The notes: generated by a model not told the origin, from the letters alone. Shown: positions 13,376 to 37,783, counted from the first letter of the stretch. The stretch is 64,000 nt of DNA from an uncultured Gammaproteobacteria bacterium (GCA_963976865.1 CAXBLY010000002.1:22917-86916), one strand, 5' to 3'. Program-made: numbers and translations.

Positions 13376-14089
13376 TTACCAGTGCATATTCTCTAAATGT
13401 ATTCTCAGTTGGGTAACATTTTTAAATTTTTTCAGAATCAAACTGGGTTTCAAACCACAACAGATATATTTTATTGCATCGGGCTGTCTGGAATAGTGCT
13501 TTGCCCCTCCAAACGAGTCGTAAAAGATTTTTATAAGATCCACAATGTCTTCTCTTCTTGATTCACGCTTGGATTCTTTTGAAAAAATCAGATCCAGCAA
13601 CTTTAACTGAAATTCCAGTCCGAATTTATTTATGATTACATTCTCAGTATGCAGATCACCATGGTATTCACCCAGATTATGAATTTGCTCAACCCCTTTT
13701 GTCATTGCATAAAGCAGATGAAGGGCCTGAAATGAAGATAAGCGCTTGCCTGGAAACCGGGTGATGAATTCAGATAATAGCTCCCCTTCTATAAATTCAG
13801 AAATCAATACTGTTATTGGCTTTCGTTTAAATATAAAAGTTTCTTTCGTATGATACTGAATTAGAATTGGGCACTCTCTAAGCTTATGTAATTGCTTGGC
13901 GTAGAAATTTGCTGTTTTATCATTCTTGTTTCTTTCTGGATAAAACAACTTTGCAGCGCGTTCAATATTAGTCCCTGTTTCTAAAATTTTATACACCTCA
14001 CCTTCCCAGCCACAACCCAGCTTGGAAATCACTTCAAATTTCCTGGATATGATACGCCCGGGAGACAAGTTGAATTCGCTATCTGTCAT
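13376..14089 (-). CDS. Small atypical protein kinase of the RIO/Bud32/Kdo-kinase type
   Basis: 237 aa with Gly-loop LGCGWEGEVYK, beta3 Lys in RAAKLF, hinge LISEFIEGE, catalytic loop HGDLHTENVII (the RIO/Bud32 HGDL signature) and LLDLIF as the metal-binding-loop equivalent. Its start overlaps the stop of the upstream phosphoesterase gene (ATGA). Confidence 0.55.
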   Translation of the reverse strand: MTDSEFNLSPGRIISRKFEVISKLGCGWEGEVYKILETGTNIERAAKLFYPERNKNDKTANFYAKQLHKLRECPILIQYHTKETFIFKRKPITVLISEFIEGELLSEFITRFPGKRLSSFQALHLLYAMTKGVEQIHNLGEYHGDLHTENVIINKFGLEFQLKLLDLIFSKESKRESRREDIVDLIKIFYDSFGGAKHYSRQPDAIKYICCGLKPSLILKKFKNVTQLRIHLENMHW

Positions 14090-14832
14090 AGGTTTATTAC
14101 AAAATCAGGAATAAATTCTTTATTCGGCGAGTCAGAGTACCCACGAGGATTACAGACAACGCGTGTCTTTCCAATCATGTAGTCACTATGTTTATGTATA
14201 TGGCCATGAACCCAGAGATCAGCATCAGAATCATTCACGGTTTGATCCAGGTGTGACGCATAGGCAGCGTTAATAACATTGTTGCCTGATTCACCTGACA
14301 ATGATTTTTCACTGGGAGCATGGTGAGTGACTATGACACGCTTCCCTTCTGGTGCTACTTCAATTTCTCTGTTCAGCCAAATCATGGAGCGCTGGTGAAA
14401 CTTTAATACATCCGACGACTTAATGCTCCTATTCGATACACCATACTTGATAGCATCATAATCAGAAATATACCTTGTCGCCATATTCTTTGCGGACCTG
14501 GCATTTCCATACAGATTAAAGTCTGTCCACATTGTGCAGCATAGGAATTGCACGTCATCAATCTGGATAGATTCATTTTCCATAACATGGATATTTGACC
14601 CTGCAGTGAGTTCTTTCAGCAAAGCCAGATGCTGCTGTAATGAGGCTCCGTAATATTCATGATTACCTGGTACATAGATAACCGGAATATGACTGAAATA
14701 CTGTCTGGCCCAGTCAACACCGCCAGACTCTATATGAATGTCACCAGCAAGTATTAAGACATCTATATTTAAGTCAGGTGGAACAAACTCTCCGAATTCT
14801 AAATGCAGGTCACTTAGAATATAGATTCTCAT
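14086..14832 (-). CDS. Calcineurin-like metallophosphoesterase
   Basis: 248 aa with the full MPP motif set DLH, AGDIH, GNHE, VTHH, GHIH. Cytoplasmic, no signal peptide. Confidence 0.8.
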   Translation of the reverse strand: MRIYILSDLHLEFGEFVPPDLNIDVLILAGDIHIESGGVDWARQYFSHIPVIYVPGNHEYYGASLQQHLALLKELTAGSNIHVMENESIQIDDVQFLCCTMWTDFNLYGNARSAKNMATRYISDYDAIKYGVSNRSIKSSDVLKFHQRSMIWLNREIEVAPEGKRVIVTHHAPSEKSLSGESGNNVINAAYASHLDQTVNDSDADLWVHGHIHKHSDYMIGKTRVVCNPRGYSDSPNKEFIPDFVINL

Positions 14833-29713: not shown

Positions 29714-30403
29714 TCAAACTGAAAGATACCCACTGATTTTTTCGGCGTCCACATCATCTCGAGTATTTTCAAATATAATCTCACCACTTTCTATCACTAG
29801 AATTCGATCAGCAATAGCCAGGGCAAAATGCAAAACCTGTTCAGACACAATGATGGTGATATCCCGCATTTTTCTTATTTCATTAAGGATATTCGCAATA
29901 TCCTTGATAATTGATGGCTGAATCCCTTCTGTTGGCTCATCCAAAAGTAATACCTTTGGATCCGTTACTAAAGCGCGTGCTATTGCAAGTTGCTGCTGCT
30001 GCCCTCCTGACAGGTTTCCACCTTTTCTATGCCTCATGTCATGCAAGACAGGAAACAGAGAAAATATCTCATCAGGAATCTTCTTTGACCTGGAATTTTC
30101 CAACCCGGTTTCAATGTTCTCCTGTACCGAAAGCGCAGGGAAAATCATTCTGCCTTGTGGCACATATGCAATACCATTAGATACTCTTTCAAAGCTTTCC
30201 ATATTAGAAACATCGGTTGCATCAATTGAAATATTGCCATTATTAACTGGAAGAATTCCTATCAATGATTTGAATAATGTAGTTTTACCCATACCATTCC
30301 TTCCCATAATAGCAATCGTTTGATTATTATCTGCAGTAAAGGATAGATCATCAATGACTTTGCTTTGCCCATATGAGACCTGAATATTTTCAACGTGCAA
30401 CAT
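29714..30403 (-). CDS. urtE: Second-copy urea/amide ABC transporter ATP-binding protein (UrtE/FmdF-like)
   Basis: 229 aa, GRNGMGKTT, LSGGQQQ. Paralogue of 3158..3853. Confidence 0.85.
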   Translation of the reverse strand: MLHVENIQVSYGQSKVIDDLSFTADNNQTIAIMGRNGMGKTTLFKSLIGILPVNNGNISIDATDVSNMESFERVSNGIAYVPQGRMIFPALSVQENIETGLENSRSKKIPDEIFSLFPVLHDMRHRKGGNLSGGQQQQLAIARALVTDPKVLLLDEPTEGIQPSIIKDIANILNEIRKMRDITIIVSEQVLHFALAIADRILVIESGEIIFENTRDDVDAEKISGYLSV

Positions 30404-30434
30404 TATATATTCCTCTTTAATGATTGATTCAGAA

Positions 30435-31187
30435 TTAATGACCCAGATACACTTCTATTACTTGCTCGTTTGATTTAACTTCATGCATTGGCCCTTCTGC
30501 CAACAGCTTTCCCTGATGTAACACAGTGACCTTACTGGCAATTTTCTCAACAAAGTCCATATCATGCTCAATAACAATTACGCTGCGTCCTTGGCATATT
30601 CTTTTTAACAAGTCTGCAGTTTGATCTCTCTCTTTAACACTCATGCCTGCAACCGGCTCATCCAGCATCAACAATTCAGGATCCTGAATTAATAACATTC
30701 CAATCTCTAACCACTGCTTCTGGCCGTGACTTAACAGAGATGCTTCCATTTCGAGAAATTCTTCCAGGAATATCTCTTTCGCAATGCGATGTATTTCCTG
30801 ATCGACTGTTTCTGTTGTTTTAAAAAATATTGCGCTTAATACATTTCTGGCCTGCGGATATGATACTTCCAGATTTTCATAGACAGACAGATTTTCATAA
30901 ATTGAAGGTGTCTGAAATTTCCTGCCAACACCCGCATGTACAATCTGATGCTCCGACATTTTTGTCAGTTCATGATTGTTGAATTTAATATATCCACTAC
31001 TGGCTGATGTTTTACCACATATCAAGTCTAGTAAAGTTGTCTTACCAGCACCGTTAGGTCCAATAATGACTCTCAATTCATTTTTGTCGATATACATCGT
31101 TACATTATCGACAGCTTTAAAACCATCAAAAGAGACAGTTAATTCTTCTATGCTTAGTACAAAATCTGAATTACTACCTTCAGCCAT
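30435..31187 (-). CDS. urtD: Second-copy urea/amide ABC transporter ATP-binding protein (UrtD/FmdE-like)
   Basis: 250 aa, GPNGAGKTT, LSHGQKQWLEIG. Confidence 0.85.
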   Translation of the reverse strand: MAEGSNSDFVLSIEELTVSFDGFKAVDNVTMYIDKNELRVIIGPNGAGKTTLLDLICGKTSASSGYIKFNNHELTKMSEHQIVHAGVGRKFQTPSIYENLSVYENLEVSYPQARNVLSAIFFKTTETVDQEIHRIAKEIFLEEFLEMEASLLSHGQKQWLEIGMLLIQDPELLMLDEPVAGMSVKERDQTADLLKRICQGRSVIVIEHDMDFVEKIASKVTVLHQGKLLAEGPMHEVKSNEQVIEVYLGH

Positions 31188-31207
31188 GATTATTCCTTTT
31201 ATCAGTA

Positions 31208-32368
31208 TTATTCAATTGCTGCAGATGTTTTAGAAGTCATTGCAACGTTATCCTGCAAATTACCGGAGGAATCCTTGTCGGTGTTATTCCTTGAAGCTTT
31301 ATATTTATCAGAGAGTTTCTGATAGATGCCAGCGAGACCATTAGGAAATGCCATGACAACACCGATAAACAAAGCGCCCATCAGGAATAACCATAATTCC
31401 GGAAAACTTTCTGAAAACAATGTTTTTCCGTAGTTGACTAACAGAGTTCCATAGATCGCACCAATCAAACTCATACGCCCCCCTACAGCCGCAAATATAA
31501 CCATCTCAATAGATGGCACAATTCCGACAAATGAAGGAGACATAAAACCTACCTGCAGTGTAAACATTGCACCACCGATTGCAGAAAATGCTGCAGCAAC
31601 ACAAAAGATAAATATTTTAAAATTTGCTACGTCATAACCAGAGAACCTGACCCTGTCTTCTTTGTCCTTGAGTGCTAGCAGTAATTTTCCAACCTTTCCA
31701 TTCAGTATAAAACGTCCGATAAGTACACATATAGCAAGCAATAAAAGATTTATGTAATAGAGGATATATTTTGCCGAATCATCTCTGATATCCCACCCAT
31801 GAAGAGTACGTAGATCAGTGATTCCATTAACACCTCCTATCAAGCCTTGTTGTCCTATAATTAATATCGTTAGAATTGCAGCGACGGCTTGTGTAATAAT
31901 CGCAAAGTACACACCACTCACACGGCGTTTAAACATAGCCGCTCCAATAATGTACGCAAATACGGTTGGCACAATAAGTACTGCAGCTAACGTAAATGCA
32001 AAATTATCAAAAGGCACCCAAAACCATGGCAGTTCAGTTAGCTGATTCCAATCCATAAAGTCAGGTATACCAGGTGTTGATTGAATAGCTGTCGTGACGG
32101 GATCAGATGCTTCGAGCTTGAGAAACATGGCCATGCAATATCCACCCAGGCCAAAAAATACTCCTTGACCTAAACTCAGAATTCCACCATACCCCCAACA
32201 CAACACCAGGCTCATGGCAACAAAAGCATAAGTGAGATATTTACCAACAAGGTTCAATCGGAATATATCCAGTACTAGTGGCAGCAAGACACCTAAGAAT
32301 ACAAGTATGACAACCAAACCAATCATGTCATTTTTGCTTCCCAACATTCTTTGTAAAGCTATATTCAT
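31208..32368 (-). CDS. urtC: Second-copy urea/amide ABC transporter permease (UrtC-like)
   Basis: 386 aa polytopic, paralogue of 4613..5728. Confidence 0.8.
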   Translation of the reverse strand: MNIALQRMLGSKNDMIGLVVILVFLGVLLPLVLDIFRLNLVGKYLTYAFVAMSLVLCWGYGGILSLGQGVFFGLGGYCMAMFLKLEASDPVTTAIQSTPGIPDFMDWNQLTELPWFWVPFDNFAFTLAAVLIVPTVFAYIIGAAMFKRRVSGVYFAIITQAVAAILTILIIGQQGLIGGVNGITDLRTLHGWDIRDDSAKYILYYINLLLLAICVLIGRFILNGKVGKLLLALKDKEDRVRFSGYDVANFKIFIFCVAAAFSAIGGAMFTLQVGFMSPSFVGIVPSIEMVIFAAVGGRMSLIGAIYGTLLVNYGKTLFSESFPELWLFLMGALFIGVVMAFPNGLAGIYQKLSDKYKASRNNTDKDSSGNLQDNVAMTSKTSAAIE

Positions 32369-32379
32369 AAAAGCTCTCC

Positions 32380-33306
32380 TTATTTTCTGACTTTGACTGA
32401 GAACAAACCTTCAGGCTTTATCATCAATATGATGATCACTGTTAACAGTGTAAGCACCTTGGCCATAGATCCTGAAAGGAAAAATTCCATAATTGATTGC
32501 GCCTGGGCGATTGAAAATGCAGATGCAATAGTCCCCAATAAACTCGCAGCACCACCAAATACAACAACCAAAAATGTATCAACGATATAAAGAGATCCAC
32601 TGGTAGGGCCTGTTGACGCAATGGTTGTAAATACTGCTCCTGCAATTCCAGCGATCCCACATCCAAATGCAAATGTATAACGGTCAACTTTTTTAGTATT
32701 AATACCAGCAGCCCCACTCATAACACGATTCTGAGTTGTGGCTCTTATACGCAAACCCCAACGTGATTTATAAAGCATATAAAATACTGCCAGGGTAAGA
32801 AAAAATGTAACTGTCACCACCAGAATTCCATTAATTGGAATTTCTATGATATCTGTTAACTGATAAGAACCCAGCAACCAATCTGGCAAAGTTGGGCTAA
32901 CTTCTCTTGCCCCAAATGCAGAACGGAATCCTTGCTGCATTATCAGGCTCAATCCCCATGTGGCCAGCAAAGTATCCAATGGCCTTTTATATAAATGCCT
33001 GACCATCCCTAACTCAACCAGGTAACCAACTATAAAAGCAATAAAGAAAGCAATGACAATGGCAAAGAAAAAATAATAATCCATAAACTCAGGAATATGC
33101 TTTTGAGTTAATACAGATAATAAATAAGTTGTGTATGCGCCAATTGTCAGAAATTCACCATGGGCCATGTTAATTACCTGCATTTGCCCAAATATGATCG
33201 CAAGTCCCAGTGCCATCAACAAAAATACACAAAATAGACTCAACCCGGAAAAGCCCTGCATTGCAAATATTGATCCCAGCTCAGATGCAGAATAATCAGA
33301 GAACAT
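32380..33306 (-). CDS. urtB: Second-copy urea/amide ABC transporter permease (UrtB-like)
   Basis: 308 aa polytopic, paralogue of 5732..6607. Confidence 0.8.
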   Translation of the reverse strand: MFSDYSASELGSIFAMQGFSGLSLFCVFLLMALGLAIIFGQMQVINMAHGEFLTIGAYTTYLLSVLTQKHIPEFMDYYFFFAIVIAFFIAFIVGYLVELGMVRHLYKRPLDTLLATWGLSLIMQQGFRSAFGAREVSPTLPDWLLGSYQLTDIIEIPINGILVVTVTFFLTLAVFYMLYKSRWGLRIRATTQNRVMSGAAGINTKKVDRYTFAFGCGIAGIAGAVFTTIASTGPTSGSLYIVDTFLVVVFGGAASLLGTIASAFSIAQAQSIMEFFLSGSMAKVLTLLTVIIILMIKPEGLFSVKVRK

Positions 33307-33412
33307 TAGCTAACTCCTTGCAAATTATTATTCATGTGCATTATCGAGTAACAACCAATGTTGAACTCAGGCTATTACTCGATATGCATGATTAAGTTAA
33401 ATCCCAGTCGCC

Positions 33413-34669
33413 TTATTGATAACCTTCAGGGAATGGATTTGGCTCAATCAGATCTGATTCGTAAATCACTTCAAATTGCCCATCAGCTTTTGCCAGACCA
33501 ATTCTTGTTTTACTCCACAGATGGTGATTCTTATCATGAATACGTACATAGCCTTCCGGTGCTGTAGTCAACTCTATGCCATTTGATGAAACTGCAATTT
33601 TATCAACATCAAAACTGCCGGCTTTCTCGACAGCTGCTTTCCATAGCCATGGGCCAAGATAGGCAGCCTGTGTGACGTCGCCAATAACGCTATCTTCGCC
33701 CCACATTTCCTTAAACTCCTTAACAAAATTTGTATTATTTTCATTGTCAAGACTCTGGAAATATTTCATTGCAGAATAAAAACCTTCAACATTTTCACCA
33801 CCAATGCCCAGCATTTCATCTTCTGTTACAGAAATAGTTAATAAAGTCCATTTATCTGACGTAATACCAGCTGCTTTAAGTTGCTTGAACCATGAAACAT
33901 TGCTACCACCAACAACTGCGGCGTAAATCACGTCTGGCTTCTTCAGTTTAATCTTGTTAATTAAAGATCCGAAGTTTGTGTGACCAAGTGGGTAGTACTC
34001 TTCTCCTACTACTTTTCCACCTAATACATTCTCAATGTGTTTGCGAGCAATCTTCATAGAAGTTCTTGGCCAGATATAATCGGAACCAACCAGGTAAAAA
34101 GTTTTTGCACCTTTTTTCTCTTTAATCCAGTCTAATCCAGCAAGAATTTGTTGTGTCGCTTCCTGACCTGTATAAATTACATTTTTGGACTGTTCAAGAC
34201 CTTCGTAAAATGTTGGGTAATAAAGCATGCCATTTTCTTTCTCAAATACAGGCAGTGCAGCTTTACGTGAAGCAGACGTCCAGCAACCAAATACCGCGGC
34301 TACTTTGTCATTGACTAATAACTTCCTTGATTTCTCCGCAAATGTTGGCCAGTCACTAGCACCGTCTTCTTGGATTATCTCAATCTTTCTACCAAGTACT
34401 CCGCCCATTTCATTTATCTGGCTAATCGCAAGCTTTTCAGCTTCAACTGAACCAGTTTCACTGATTGCCATGGTACCTGTCACTGAATGTAGAATACCTA
34501 CTGTTACAGTATCATCGGTAACAGCCAATCCTGTGGTGTTTACCTCCGATGTAGGGTAATCATTAGAAAATACGTTCTGACTTACGAATAAAAATATTAT
34601 TAATAATGAACTCAGAACACTTAATTTAAACTTATGCATGTTTCTATCTCCGAAGTTAATGTAAATCAT
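33413..34669 (-). CDS. urtA: Second-copy periplasmic urea/amide/formamide binding protein (UrtA/FmdD-like), Sec-type signal; likely start at the internal Met (about 34639)
   Basis: LivJ/UrtA-like body (VTVGILHSVTGTMAISE, QINEMGGVLGRKI). MHKFKLSVLSSLLIIFLFVSQNVFS looks like a Sec signal, in contrast to the Tat signal on copy 1. Confidence 0.85.
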   Translation of the reverse strand: MIYINFGDRNMHKFKLSVLSSLLIIFLFVSQNVFSNDYPTSEVNTTGLAVTDDTVTVGILHSVTGTMAISETGSVEAEKLAISQINEMGGVLGRKIEIIQEDGASDWPTFAEKSRKLLVNDKVAAVFGCWTSASRKAALPVFEKENGMLYYPTFYEGLEQSKNVIYTGQEATQQILAGLDWIKEKKGAKTFYLVGSDYIWPRTSMKIARKHIENVLGGKVVGEEYYPLGHTNFGSLINKIKLKKPDVIYAAVVGGSNVSWFKQLKAAGITSDKWTLLTISVTEDEMLGIGGENVEGFYSAMKYFQSLDNENNTNFVKEFKEMWGEDSVIGDVTQAAYLGPWLWKAAVEKAGSFDVDKIAVSSNGIELTTAPEGYVRIHDKNHHLWSKTRIGLAKADGQFEVIYESDLIEPNPFPEGYQ

Positions 34670-34969
34670 GTTCGAAAATATTCATTGCAACTACAATGCC
34701 AACTACGTTTTTACAAGCGAATTAAATTATTTGTTATGAGAATGATATTGAATCATGTTAATTACGCACTAATTTCTTTCATCATTAAATCGTTAAAACT
34801 TTATAATGGTGCGTAAGTAATATAAATTTTTATATATCAATAAACAGACCAGAATTAACACTCTGTAATTTCAGAAAGCTATGCATTTTTAGATGCATAG
34901 AATCTTTTATTAGTGCAGAATTATTATGGTACGGATGCTGACAAGATTTGATGCCTAAACGCATCTATA

Positions 34970-35233
34970 TTATTTGACTTGTGGGCGGGTATTTTGATCG
35001 AGTATTTTTTTCACTGTTGAGCAGTGCCATTTACCATTTCTTGGAGTTTTATATTGATTCTCATTTAAATAATCACATATATCCTGAAGAATATGACCGC
35101 TCTTTCTTAAATTAATAATTTTGGATATGGTTGCTTGCTGATCACGATCTATCATTTGATAACCACTCGCTGCGATTCTCCAGCCATAACGCATTCTCCT
35201 GTAGTTACAATGATCGACCTTGTAGGCTCTCAC
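34970..35233 (-). pseudogene. Remnant of a large serine recombinase: only the 'Recombinase' domain is present and the N-terminal catalytic resolvase domain is missing
   Basis: The 87-aa ORF YGWRIAASGYQMIDRDQQATISKIINLRKSGHILQDICDYLNENQYKTPRNGKWHCSTVKKIL aligns with the recombinase domain of TnpX/SpoIVCA-type enzymes (...YSLRKIAKYLNE.GIPTPRGGKWSASTISRIL). There is no room upstream for a catalytic domain, because fmdB ends 12 nt away. Confidence 0.55.
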
Positions 35234-35245
35234 TAGTCTTGCTCC

Positions 35246-35560
35246 TTAGTGTCCTAGCATCCATGGTCTGCCACCTGGCGATGCCTGCATATATTCAGGC
35301 TTCTTATGTGAATGATTATCATGAGAGTGATCATGTCCACAGGAATGCTTTTTCTTCCTTATTGGTTCGTGAGCACTCTTTTCATTTTTTTCCCAGGCCT
35401 GTCTGTTTCTATTGTTCATTAAAGATAATGCAGGAGCGGAAATAATGCGCGTCGTATCTGATCCACATGAAGGACAAGGAAAAGTATCATTTCTATTATT
35501 TATATTTGCATGCTGGATAAAATCGCCATGTTCTTCACAACGGTATTCATATATAGGCAT
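35246..35560 (-). CDS. fmdB: FmdB-family zinc-ribbon putative regulatory protein with a His-rich C-terminal tail
   Basis: 104 aa. MPIYEYRCEEHGDF...FPCPSCGS is the FmdB/CxxC_CxxC_SSSS ribbon, with the first pair being C..H. Immediately downstream of fmdA. The tail is HSCGHDHSHDNHSHKK. Confidence 0.75.
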   Translation of the reverse strand: MPIYEYRCEEHGDFIQHANINNRNDTFPCPSCGSDTTRIISAPALSLMNNRNRQAWEKNEKSAHEPIRKKKHSCGHDHSHDNHSHKKPEYMQASPGGRPWMLGH

Positions 35561-35588
35561 TATCTACACTCCTGAATTTAATTTAACA

Positions 35589-36845
35589 TTAACTGGTAAA
35601 CGCCAGATCTTGCGAACCTGTTACCTCTTTAGTTGGCCCTTCTTCTTTGATATTGATATCAAAGTCAAATATTCCTGTTGGTAGCCATAGAGTAGAACAT
35701 GCATTCGGAATATCGACTATTCCACTAATGTGTCCTTCAACTGGTGCGGTACCTAAAATTGCATATCCCTGTGCTCCGGTGAATCCAAATTTCTTCATAT
35801 ACTCAATCGCATTTAAACATGCTCTACGATAAGCAATGTGAGGATCAAGATAATATTGCTCTCCGTCTTCGTCGACTGAAATCCCTTCAAAGATCAGGTA
35901 GTCAGAATAATCCGGATCAATTTTACTTGGTTTGAAGATAGGATTAACGACACTATATTTCTCCATCCCACCTTTAATAATGCTCACTTTGATGTCCAGA
36001 TACCCGGCCATCTCGATTGCTCCACAGAATGTAATTTCTCCATCACCCTGAGAAAAATGGATATCACCCATGGAAAGTCCCGCACCATCAACATACACTG
36101 GAAAATAAACAGTTGATCCACGCGAAAGATTTTTGATATCACAATTACCACCATGTTCTCTTGGAGGTACTGTTCTGGCAGCTTCAGCTGCAGCTTTATC
36201 ACGCGCTGCACCTGTCAGTGACCCCATTAGCGCAGTATCTGCATAGGGTAATGCTGCCAATGGCGGTACTCTGTCAGGGTCTGTGTTAACCAGCTTGGTT
36301 TCACGCTTGTTCCACTCATCCAGCAAGTCAGCAGATGGCAGACAGCCAATCAATCCCGGATGCATTGTGCCTGGAAATCTGACGTGAGGAATGTGTCTTG
36401 AAGATGCCCATATACCACTAAAGTCCCAGCATGCTTTTCTTGCTTCAGGATAATGCTCAGTCAGGAATCCACCTCCATTCTCGCGAGCAAAGAATCCAGT
36501 GAACCCCCAGGCAGATTCAGGTAATACACCGACATCCAGAATATCCACGACTAGCAAGTCTCCAGGCTTTGCTCCCTCGACACCAATAGGCCCACTCAAG
36601 TAGTGCACTTTGGTTAAATCGACATCCCGAATATCATTCGCACTATCATCATTTTCAATTTGTCCTCCAGTCCAGTCAATACACTGAACTCGAAATTCCT
36701 GTCCTGGTTTAACAGTTGAAGTAAATGGAATATCAGGATGCCATCGATTGTGAAGTACATCGGCTTGTTCTTCTGGTGTTTTATCTATATCTACTTCTAT
36801 TAGCGTTTCTATCATTATGCTCACTCCTAGCTGATTAAGGATCAA
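35589..36845 (-). CDS. fmdA: Formamidase of the acetamidase/formamidase (FmdA_AmdA) family; probable true start at the internal Met (MIETLIEVD, about 36815)
   Basis: About 408 aa from the internal Met, the FmdA size. Conserved blocks are NRWHPDIP, DWTGGQI.NDDSA.D, LSGPIGVEGAKPGDLLVVD, GNCDIKNL and HFSQGDGEI. The fmdA-fmdB-fmdDEF(urt-like) arrangement is as in Methylophilus. Confidence 0.85.
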   Translation of the reverse strand: MILNQLGVSIMIETLIEVDIDKTPEEQADVLHNRWHPDIPFTSTVKPGQEFRVQCIDWTGGQIENDDSANDIRDVDLTKVHYLSGPIGVEGAKPGDLLVVDILDVGVLPESAWGFTGFFARENGGGFLTEHYPEARKACWDFSGIWASSRHIPHVRFPGTMHPGLIGCLPSADLLDEWNKRETKLVNTDPDRVPPLAALPYADTALMGSLTGAARDKAAAEAARTVPPREHGGNCDIKNLSRGSTVYFPVYVDGAGLSMGDIHFSQGDGEITFCGAIEMAGYLDIKVSIIKGGMEKYSVVNPIFKPSKIDPDYSDYLIFEGISVDEDGEQYYLDPHIAYRRACLNAIEYMKKFGFTGAQGYAILGTAPVEGHISGIVDIPNACSTLWLPTGIFDFDINIKEEGPTKEVTGSQDLAFTS

Positions 36846-37144
36846 ATCATCCAGAACATCGCACTATATGTGCCAACAATAAGAGCATTATAGAAATCAG
36901 CAACTTAGTGAATTTCAAGATGTTGCTGTATTGAATAACACATAGATTTTTGCACCATTATAGATATTGGCGCACCAAAAAAAGATACTACAGAACAGAG
37001 CAGGAACAATAATTATTCAATTATTAATGGCATTGAATCTTTTCGCACTAGACACTATCACACACAAAAATTTAAGCACTATTACCTGTGAAATATTCAA
37101 TGTGTTCAACTATCACATCAAACATTCACAGTATAGCTACATAT

Positions 37145-37783
37145 TTAGAATCTGAGTTTCAGACTTCTATAAAGAGTATTCAACTCATCTACTGAATTAA
37201 CACAGGTATCCAGGTCTTTGAGTATCCCGTCTTCTATACCATAGATCCAGCCATGTACCGCTAGCTCATTATTGCGTTTCCAGCAGTTTTGCACTGTTGT
37301 GGTATTACATACATTAAATACCTGTTCAATGACGTTTAATTCACTCAGACGAGCCTGTTTTTCCTCACCCGATAAGGCTGACAACTCCTCTGCGTGAAAC
37401 CTTGCGACATCTTTAATGTGTCTAAGCCAATTATCAATCAGGCCATGTTGCTTTTTTTCCAGTGATGCCTGTATTCCACCACATCCATAATGACCACACA
37501 CAATAATATGTTTAACCTTTAATACTTCGACTGCAAACTGTATGACGGAGAGGCAGTTTAAATCAGTATGAACCACAACATTCGCTATATTCCGGTGTAC
37601 AAATACTTCTCCCGGAGGAAGGTTTACAATCTGATTTGCAGGCACACGACTATCAGAGCATCCTATCCATAGATATTCTGGCGTTTGCTGTTCAGACGAA
37701 ATAGAAAAGAATTCAGGGTTTTCATCTTTAATTTTCTTCGCCCAGGCACGGTTATTGTCAAACAGTTTACTTAATTTTTTCAT
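37145..37783 (-). CDS. Beta-class carbonic anhydrase
   Basis: 212 aa with CSDSRV and HYGCGG zinc-ligand motifs. Confidence 0.85.
   Translation of the reverse strand: MKKLSKLFDNNRAWAKKIKDENPEFFSISSEQQTPEYLWIGCSDSRVPANQIVNLPPGEVFVHRNIANVVVHTDLNCLSVIQFAVEVLKVKHIIVCGHYGCGGIQASLEKKQHGLIDNWLRHIKDVARFHAEELSALSGEEKQARLSELNVIEQVFNVCNTTTVQNCWKRNNELAVHGWIYGIEDGILKDLDTCVNSVDELNTLYRSLKLRF

Follow-up and report, generated by a model that had tools for sequence, protein, structure and literature searches.

A formamidase locus with its own Urt-type importer in an uncultured marine gammaproteobacterium: a probable nitrogen-scavenging module for formamide

We analyzed a 64-kb stretch of DNA from an uncultured marine gammaproteobacterium (GCA_963976865.1 CAXBLY010000002.1:22917-86916; the window), in which the genes fmdA and fmdB precede a complete five-gene ABC importer of the Urt type. 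This locus, which runs from fmdA to urtE2 on the minus strand (36815..29714; locus 2), probably serves to scavenge nitrogen from formamide, and possibly from other very small amides, and would complement, not duplicate, an acetamide-type amidase cassette in the same window (locus 1). Two amidase families, the FmdA_AmdA-family FmdA and the nitrilase-superfamily AmiE, each adjoin their own complete binding-protein-dependent importer, as had been proposed in an initial annotation of this DNA.

Locus 2 consists of eight intact genes in two tightly packed blocks, fmdA-fmdB-recS and urtA2BCDE, with a 330-nt spacer between recS and urtA2. The first block contains fmdA (35589..36815; 408 aa), fmdB (35246..35560; 104 aa), and an 87-aa open reading frame (ORF) between fmdB and urtA2 (34970..35233), a gene overlooked in the initial annotation that we refer to as recS. 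In the second block, urtA2 (33413..34639) encodes a periplasmic binding protein of 408 aa, urtB2 (32380..33306) and urtC2 (31208..32368) encode permeases, and urtD2 (30435..31187) and urtE2 (29714..30403) encode ATPases. All five products pass the NCBIfam cut-offs for UrtA to UrtE and cover the profiles essentially end to end: UrtA2 scores 535 bits against a cut-off of 493 (TIGR03407), UrtB2 390 against 250 (TIGR03409, profile positions 2-291 of 291), UrtC2 441 against 296 (TIGR03408, positions 1-313 of 313), UrtD2 368 against 304 (TIGR03411), and UrtE2 333 against 286 (TIGR03410). Frameshifts are absent. The Joint Genome Institute (JGI) metagenome contig L001 matches all eight proteins at 100%, the Tara contig L002 has matches of 98-100% to them, and L003 and L004, both short contigs, are at 100% for the genes they reach. 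The minus strand carries every gene named in the initial annotation, and each is full-length when compared with curated models. The extent given there, 29714-36845, is right for the gene set and wrong at its upstream end, where 36845 reflects an upstream in-frame TTG; the fmdA ATG lies at 36815 and is preceded by an AGGAG Shine-Dalgarno motif.

The amidase is firmly placed in its family. FmdA matches Pfam FmdA_AmdA (PF03069) with E=2.8e-185 and reaches 756 bits with the formamidase equivalog model NF045496, for which the cut-off is 500, in an alignment to positions 2-405 of the 407 in the profile. Many genomes encode proteins that the sources name formamidase and that share 76-96% identity with it, with identities of 95-96% in metagenome-assembled genomes labeled Gammaproteobacteria; identities of 76-79% to named formamidases suggest that FmdA has this activity. 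FmdB is a zinc-ribbon protein (PF09723, Zn_ribbon_8; TIGR02605, 47.5 bits against a cut-off of 31.3). Its score of 97 bits with NF053663, which describes an RPWMISH-type C-terminal domain, is below the cut-off of 120, and its C-terminal motif is RPWMLGH, not RPWMISH. The ribbon has the form CxxH...CxxC, with CxxH instead of CxxC in the first pair, as is also the case in 36 of 84 FmdB sequences surveyed, and the middle of the protein is rich in His and Cys (stretch HSCGHDHSHDNHSH). This His-rich stretch suggests that FmdB may handle metal for FmdA, instead of or besides a regulatory role. The features shared by FmdB of the window and of related loci L005-L084 are an N-terminal Cx2[C/H]...Cx2C, the motif NE(K/R)SxHEP, a His/Cys-rich stretch, and a C-terminal RPWM(I/L)(S/G)H.

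Locus 1 (1173..10020, minus strand) provides an intact cassette for comparison, amiC-amiR-urtA1BCDE-amiE-amiB. It contains the AmiC-like sensor, the ANTAR antiterminator, and the nitrilase-superfamily amidase of an AmiC/AmiR-regulated aliphatic amidase cassette: amiC (10020..8866) encodes a Peripla_BP_5 protein without a signal peptide, amiR (8853..8230) a protein with ANTAR and AmiR_N domains, and amiE (3108..2074) an aliphatic amidase (NF009802, 719 bits against a cut-off of 427). The importer genes are urtA1 (7943..6693), urtB1 (6607..5732), urtC1 (5728..4613), urtD1 (4598..3846), and urtE1 (3853..3158), and the last gene is an amiB-like AAA gene (1970..1173). UrtA1 falls below the NCBIfam UrtA cut-off (406 compared to 493 bits). 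The leader that separates urtA1 from amiR (8130-8215, minus strand) contains a tandem pair of short hairpins, each with a loop of six bases and set a few bases apart (AAUGGC-AGCAUC-GCCAUU and CUAAGGC-AACAAA-GCCUUAG). The pair is reminiscent of the double-hairpin RNAs targeted by ANTAR antiterminators and has no Rfam match.

The ligand pockets of the binding proteins give an indication of what the two importers carry. In Prochlorococcus UrtA (8HIC), urea is surrounded by W120, S122, Y141, Q144, E146, Y190, F192, N246, and S274; Ser122, Gln144, Tyr190, and Asn246 form six hydrogen bonds to urea, and binding is reduced or lost when any one of them is mutated. Gln144 and Asn246 take hydrogen bonds from the urea nitrogens, and Trp120 supports the pocket (PMC10392092). 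In AmiC, the residues within 5 Å of acetamide are Y83, S85, Y104, T106, residue 107, E109, Y150, Y152, V206, and T233 (PMC13531289). These two lists fall on the same ten alignment columns, one-to-one, and we used these ten positions as a pocket signature. The signature is WSY[IV]QEYFNS in the urea-type clade, represented by three chains of the Protein Data Bank (PDB; 8HIC, which was solved with urea, 7S6E, which is named as urea-binding, and 8TG1), WSYTFEYWVS in 63 of 64 FmdA-linked binding proteins including UrtA2, and YSYTLEYYVT in 78 of 79 AmiE-linked binding proteins including UrtA1. All 60 AmiC sensors of locus-1-type cassettes have YSYT[LVI]EYYVT (YSYTVEYYVT in the window AmiC), close to the YSYTPEYYVT of Pseudomonas aeruginosa AmiC.

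UrtA2 belongs to the same fold family and five-subunit architecture as the cyanobacterial UrtA proteins (8HIC, 7S6E, 7S6F; E=1e-101 to 1e-103) and shares with them six of the ten pocket positions, Trp120, Ser122, Tyr141, Glu146, Tyr190, and Ser274. The Ser, Tyr, and Trp of the urea pocket are therefore retained, but the FmdA-linked clade invariably has Phe in place of Gln144, Val in place of Asn246, Trp in place of Phe192, and Thr at position 143. Neither UrtA1 nor UrtA2 has the two side chains that take hydrogen bonds from the urea nitrogens, and the pockets argue against either importer being a dedicated urea transporter; we do not file UrtA2 as one, and we argue from these residues that "UrtABCDE" is a label of homology here and probably not of function. 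FmdA-linked and AmiE-linked pockets differ from each other at three positions (Phe, Trp, and Trp compared to Leu, Tyr, and Tyr), and the Phe and Trp of UrtA2, bulkier than Leu and Tyr, would fit the smallest amide. A phylogeny of both UrtA copies had been put forward in the initial annotation as a check, and in our neighbor-joining tree the four groups form separate clades, with UrtA1, UrtA2, and characterized urea UrtA each in its own and the FmdA-linked clade monophyletic and sister to urea UrtA. The distinct substrate ranges suggested in that annotation are plausible, given two binding proteins with different, clade-invariant pockets, as far as pocket residues can indicate. The closest solved structure to UrtA2 is 8TG1 ("Extracellular ligand-binding receptor", 405 bits), which has the urea-type pocket WSYVQEYFNS; our literature search found no paper on 8TG1 or its ligand.

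Both cassettes are widespread. A scan for FmdA in one genome per Genome Taxonomy Database (GTDB) species found 589 relatives, and the counts given here are for the best 80 loci, with the ABCDE set sought within 10 kb. In 79 of the 80, fmdB follows fmdA, and 57 have a complete Urt2-type ABCDE set, with partial sets at contig ends in 4 more. These FmdA loci span Gamma-, Beta-, and Alphaproteobacteria, Verrucomicrobiota, Planctomycetota, and Myxococcota. The order found in the window, fmdAB and then urt, is that of a minority (8 of the 57 loci with a complete set). AmiE is encoded within 10 kb of FmdA in 16 of 80 loci, where the two amidases mostly use the one importer jointly; loci L008-L010 have the order fmdA-fmdB-urtABCDE-amiE. 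Among 80 loci from a metagenome scan with UrtA1, virtually every sufficiently long contig carries amiC-amiR-urtA1BCDE-amiE(-amiB). Given this wide spread of each cassette, both loci are standard, and the "unusual redundancy" seen in the initial annotation finds no support in these numbers or in published amidase-urt clusters (PMC3098086, PMC13209695). Both cluster types have been described before, as has an organism with two amidase clusters, and locus 2 is ordinary in kind. At locus L153 (10001-16600), an AmiC-AmiR/Urt1-type cassette has fmdA-fmdB replacing amiE, with an FmdA 59% identical to that of the window, which shows that amidase modules have been exchanged between the two importer types.

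The two loci also appear to differ in their control. A sigma-54-type -24/-12 element with one mismatch, TGGCACATATAGTGC (36861..36875, minus strand), lies 60 nt upstream of the fmdA ATG, and a strict match, TGGCATTGTAGTTGCA (34686..34701, minus strand), lies 62 nt upstream of the urtA2 ATG. The latter is the sole strict sigma-54 consensus match in the window; loose matches number only four, TGGCACATATAGTGC among them, and none is at locus 1. Equivalents of TGGCACATATAGTGC are found upstream of fmdA in L002-L004, L006, L007, and some distant loci, and TGGCATTGTAGTTGCA is kept upstream of the binding-protein gene in L005, L006, L085, L086, L087, and L172, as well as in several distant Gamma- and Betaproteobacteria. 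Both elements lie in conserved islands within otherwise divergent spacers (L005-L007). Approximately 80-115 nt upstream of the fmdA promoter is a pair of direct repeats that resemble half-sites, GGTGC(G/A), with a spacing of 20 nt (36951..36976, minus strand), and TTTGGTGC blocks upstream of fmdA are kept in L005, L006, and L007. Upstream of the urtA2 promoter, the inverted half-sites TTACGCAC and GTGCGTAA are separated by 39 nt (34762..34816, minus strand), and CGCAC and GTGC blocks form conserved islands in the divergent recS-urtA2 spacer (L005, L006). We consider these GGTGC/GCAC half-sites upstream of both promoters to be candidate sites for an NtrC-type activator, an assignment made at the level of conserved half-sites. 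The leaders at locus 2 are about 45 nt long, leaving no room for an AmiR-type antitermination site. Locus 2 is thus likely to be under nitrogen-status control, whereas locus 1 would be substrate-induced.

Between urtA2 and urtB2 there is a stem-loop of about 20 bp (33335..33391, minus strand; dG -31.6 kcal/mol, z=-3.0). It has an equivalent with different stem sequences in L005 and L006 and is not repeated elsewhere in the window. Operons that produce their binding protein in excess typically have a hairpin after its gene, and this one is predicted to raise the expression of the binding protein over that of the permeases. A generic scan for sigma-70 promoters and terminators gave counts in the locus no higher than in shuffled sequences, recS is not followed by any convincing intrinsic terminator, and the folding of the recS-urtA2 spacer is unexceptional (z=-1.8). 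Rfam (at gathering thresholds) and tRNA scans of the whole window gave no matches.

Part of the contrast between the loci is specific to this genome. The N-terminus of UrtA1, MKKTRRSFIKK, contains the twin-arginine motif TRRSFIKK of a twin-arginine translocation (Tat) signal, and that of UrtA2, MHKFKLSVLSSLLIIFLFVSQNVFS followed by ND, is a Sec-type signal. A twin-arginine (RR) motif is present in all 79 AmiE-linked binding proteins examined, compared to 35 of 64 FmdA-linked ones, with none in the other 29; the FmdA-linked binding protein of L009, for example, has RRQFMK, and UrtA2 of the window has no RR motif. The use of Tat and Sec export by the two binding proteins, as initially annotated, is correct for this genome's UrtA1 and UrtA2 but is not conserved across the FmdA-linked clade.

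A model of locus 2 can be assembled from these features. Under nitrogen limitation, an NtrC-type activator would fire both promoters of the locus. Sec-exported UrtA2 would capture formamide in the periplasm, its expression raised relative to the membrane parts by the hairpin that follows its gene, and UrtB2C2 with UrtD2E2 would import formamide at the cost of ATP. In the cytoplasm, FmdA would split formamide into formate and ammonium, with FmdB, whose gene is constantly coupled to fmdA, acting as a metal-binding accessory or regulatory partner. At locus 1, the substrate would induce expression via AmiC and AmiR, and Tat-exported UrtA1 would feed the aliphatic amidase AmiE.

An alternative interpretation is that the importer of locus 2 is a true high-affinity urea transporter that merely adjoins fmdAB, giving the organism one urea and one amide system. 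We regard this as unlikely. The scores of UrtA2-E2 above the NCBIfam UrtA-E cut-offs favor it, as does the sister position of the UrtA2 clade to structurally characterized urea-binding UrtA, at about 51% identity, and a Methylophilus system has been reported for urea besides amides, according to the title of a paper cited in PMC10781810. However, the urea-contacting Gln144 and Asn246 are replaced by Phe and Val in 63 of 64 FmdA-linked proteins, and the linkage to fmdA persists across phyla. No urease gene was found among the profiled genes of the window (not every ORF was scanned), and the authors of PMC3098086 and PMC13209695 drew the same non-urea inference for their clusters. It is slightly less likely again that the two loci are redundant for the same short-chain amides, as a high- and low-affinity pair or as differently regulated back-ups with similar ranges. 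Such redundancy would be consistent with the 16 of 80 FmdA loci in which one Urt2-type importer stands with both fmdA and amiE, with the coupling of an AmiCR/Urt1 cassette to fmdA-fmdB instead of amiE at L153, which indicates that modules are interchangeable in evolution, and with the report that AmiE- and FmdA-type enzymes are each somewhat active on several small amides (PMC10781810). It is at odds with the different, nearly invariant pockets of the two binding-protein clades and with the finding that UrtA1 has the pocket of its cassette's AmiC sensor, whereas UrtA2 does not.

We give very little credence to the notion that either locus is non-functional, as a duplicate in decay or as a copy acquired by recent transfer. 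A recent tandem duplication with frameshifted pseudogenes is the outcome that, according to the initial annotation, would have undone its reading; instead, the ORFs are full-length, and the Urt paralogues of the two loci are only 37-44% identical in amino acid sequence. Nucleotide similarity between the loci is limited to three short, weak matches. These values argue against a recent duplicate or pseudogene set, and the two Urt sets are anciently diverged. The GC content of locus 2 resembles that of its surroundings, and the promoters and intercistronic hairpin are conserved. Identical copies of FmdA and of AmiE each occur in approximately 13-14 independent assemblies, in sets that nearly coincide and include eleven contigs longer than 50 kb.

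Several observations weigh against the interpretation that we prefer, a formamide-scavenging role for locus 2. The specificity of UrtA2 is deduced from residue substitutions only, all five subunits exceed cut-offs set for urea transporters, and the title of the Methylophilus transporter paper, as cited in PMC10781810, reads "short-chain amides and urea". WSYTFEYWVS binding proteins also serve clusters that contain amiE (the 16 of 80 loci mentioned above), and the range of UrtA2 may therefore be wider than formamide, extending to acetamide and perhaps, at lower affinity, to urea. As for regulation, the case for sigma-54/NtrC control consists of consensus matches and their conservation, with no activator gene identified, and the GC-rich relatives L170 and L171 have no match to the sigma-54 pattern used.

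Related clusters have been described in several other bacteria. In Bradyrhizobium japonicum, a second five-gene urt-like cluster (blr0968-blr0973) lies by an FmdA_AmdA gene and AmiE, and an amide rather than urea was inferred in 2010 to be its cargo (PMC3098086). Pseudomonas veronii Yu15, described in 2026, has a chromosomal amiE-fmdA-fmdB-urtABCDE cluster and, apart from it, an amiE-amiC-amiR cluster that includes a CbbQ-like AAA gene. It grows with formamide or acetamide as sole nitrogen source; an amiC-amiR-ABC-amiE operon is found on a Klebsiella plasmid (PMC13209695). Both B. japonicum and Yu15 resemble the window in having a five-gene Urt-like importer co-located with fmdA, for which formamide or acetamide, and not urea, was inferred as cargo, and Yu15 also resembles it in having two amidase clusters in one organism. 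They differ in that their amiE uses the FmdA-linked importer, whereas amiE of the window has its own ABC importer of another clade, and in gene order, which in the window is fmdAB and then urt, with recS in between. The amiECR cluster of Yu15, as described, comprises amiE, amiC, amiR, the CbbQ-like AAA gene, and a NorD-like gene, with no transporter genes. Compared to urea UrtABCDE systems, locus 2 is tied to a formamidase gene instead of urease.

The system of Methylophilus methylotrophus likewise combines an FmdA_AmdA-family formamidase with a LivJ/AmiC-like binding protein and ABC permeases for small amides. There, fmdA is followed by fmdB, and fmdB by fmdC, an outer-membrane porin gene; in the window, the gene after fmdB is recS, and locus 2 has no porin. 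The amiEBCRS operon of P. aeruginosa, with its AmiC sensor and AmiR ANTAR antiterminator (1PEA/1QO0), is the counterpart of locus 1, which likewise has amiC, amiR, amiE, and an AmiB-like AAA gene. In addition, locus 1 encodes a complete ABC importer and an AmiC-like periplasmic binding protein exported by Tat. The regulatory components AmiC and AmiR are missing from locus 2.

These results bear on how nitrogen use in the ocean is read from genes. Amide binding proteins linked to FmdA or AmiE will be scored as urea transporters by curated urea-transporter models and in Tara-type "UrtA" surveys. In the sampled sequences, the signatures of the ten pocket positions separate the urea, FmdA-linked, and AmiE-/AmiC-linked classes, and they could sharpen ocean estimates of urea compared to small-amide use. 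That this bacterium maintains two amide importers, both ATP-driven and each under its own kind of control, suggests that its habitat offers formamide and acetamide-type compounds as genuine sources of nitrogen. Apart from this, the finding includes an undescribed small protein, RecS, in perfect synteny; the practical value of the whole is modest.

The recS gene has a GTG start and its own TAAGGAG Shine-Dalgarno motif. Its product matches only positions 2-51 of the 102 positions of the PF07508 Recombinase profile, the N-terminal half of that domain (35 bits against a cut-off of 21). With half a Recombinase domain, no catalytic domain, and a length of 87 aa, RecS is not a large serine recombinase. 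Comparison with L005 and L006 gave pS values of 0.71-0.84, at which synonymous sites are saturated, and pN values of 0.18-0.26; RecS is under purifying selection. Database searches recovered 18 and then 59 family members, mostly of 84-96 aa, with the motif MRxYKxDHxNxRRxRYGWR and two near-invariant Cys residues. No function has been described for this family, which we consider an undescribed family of small proteins. In all ten lineages with readable context, recS follows fmdB directly and precedes the binding-protein gene. The ten are the window (identical in L001-L004) and nine loci with members of this 87-90-aa family: L005 (11594-11857), L006 (11567-11836), L007 (9638-9790), L085 (6001-6264), L086 (2296-2559), L087 (1147-1419), and L170, L171, and L172 (5001-5273). 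No RecS-like ORF was found in the fmdB-urtA gaps of L008-L010, which have the same gene order, indicating that RecS is lineage-restricted.

The structure model of RecS is a small helical domain resembling a helix-turn-helix, predicted with moderate confidence (predicted local distance difference test, pLDDT, of 72), and a Foldseek search of this model against the PDB gave nothing significant, the best match being Bxb1 integrase (E=0.5). We speculate, with considerable doubt, that RecS arose by domestication of a DNA-binding half of a Recombinase domain and became fixed beside fmdA-fmdB, as a third gene, in one group of Pseudomonadota, marine ones and others, and that it acts with FmdB as a dedicated regulator or architectural factor at the sigma-54 promoter of the importer immediately downstream. 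The proposed pairing echoes the recombinase-domain and zinc-ribbon DNA-binding pair of large serine recombinases. Two further candidates were rejected. An apparent FmdB::RecS fusion protein (P0288), considered as a Rosetta-stone link, is a frame artefact, since L170 has the FmdB C-terminus GGRPWMLGH* in a different reading frame. Nor does the CxxH variant of FmdB mark recS loci, as 24 loci without RecS also carry it.

Two neighboring features were noted. Approximately 3 kb from amiC, a short protein-kinase-like ORF (237 aa) is adjacent to a metallophosphatase (13376-14832, minus strand), and in L085 a 215-aa kinase-like ORF (3338-3985) is directly upstream of fmdA, a parallel that may be coincidence. 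A gene for a beta-class carbonic anhydrase (37145-37783) shares the minus strand with fmdA and lies upstream of it at a distance of about 330 bp; its synteny with fmdA is limited to the close relatives L005 and L006.

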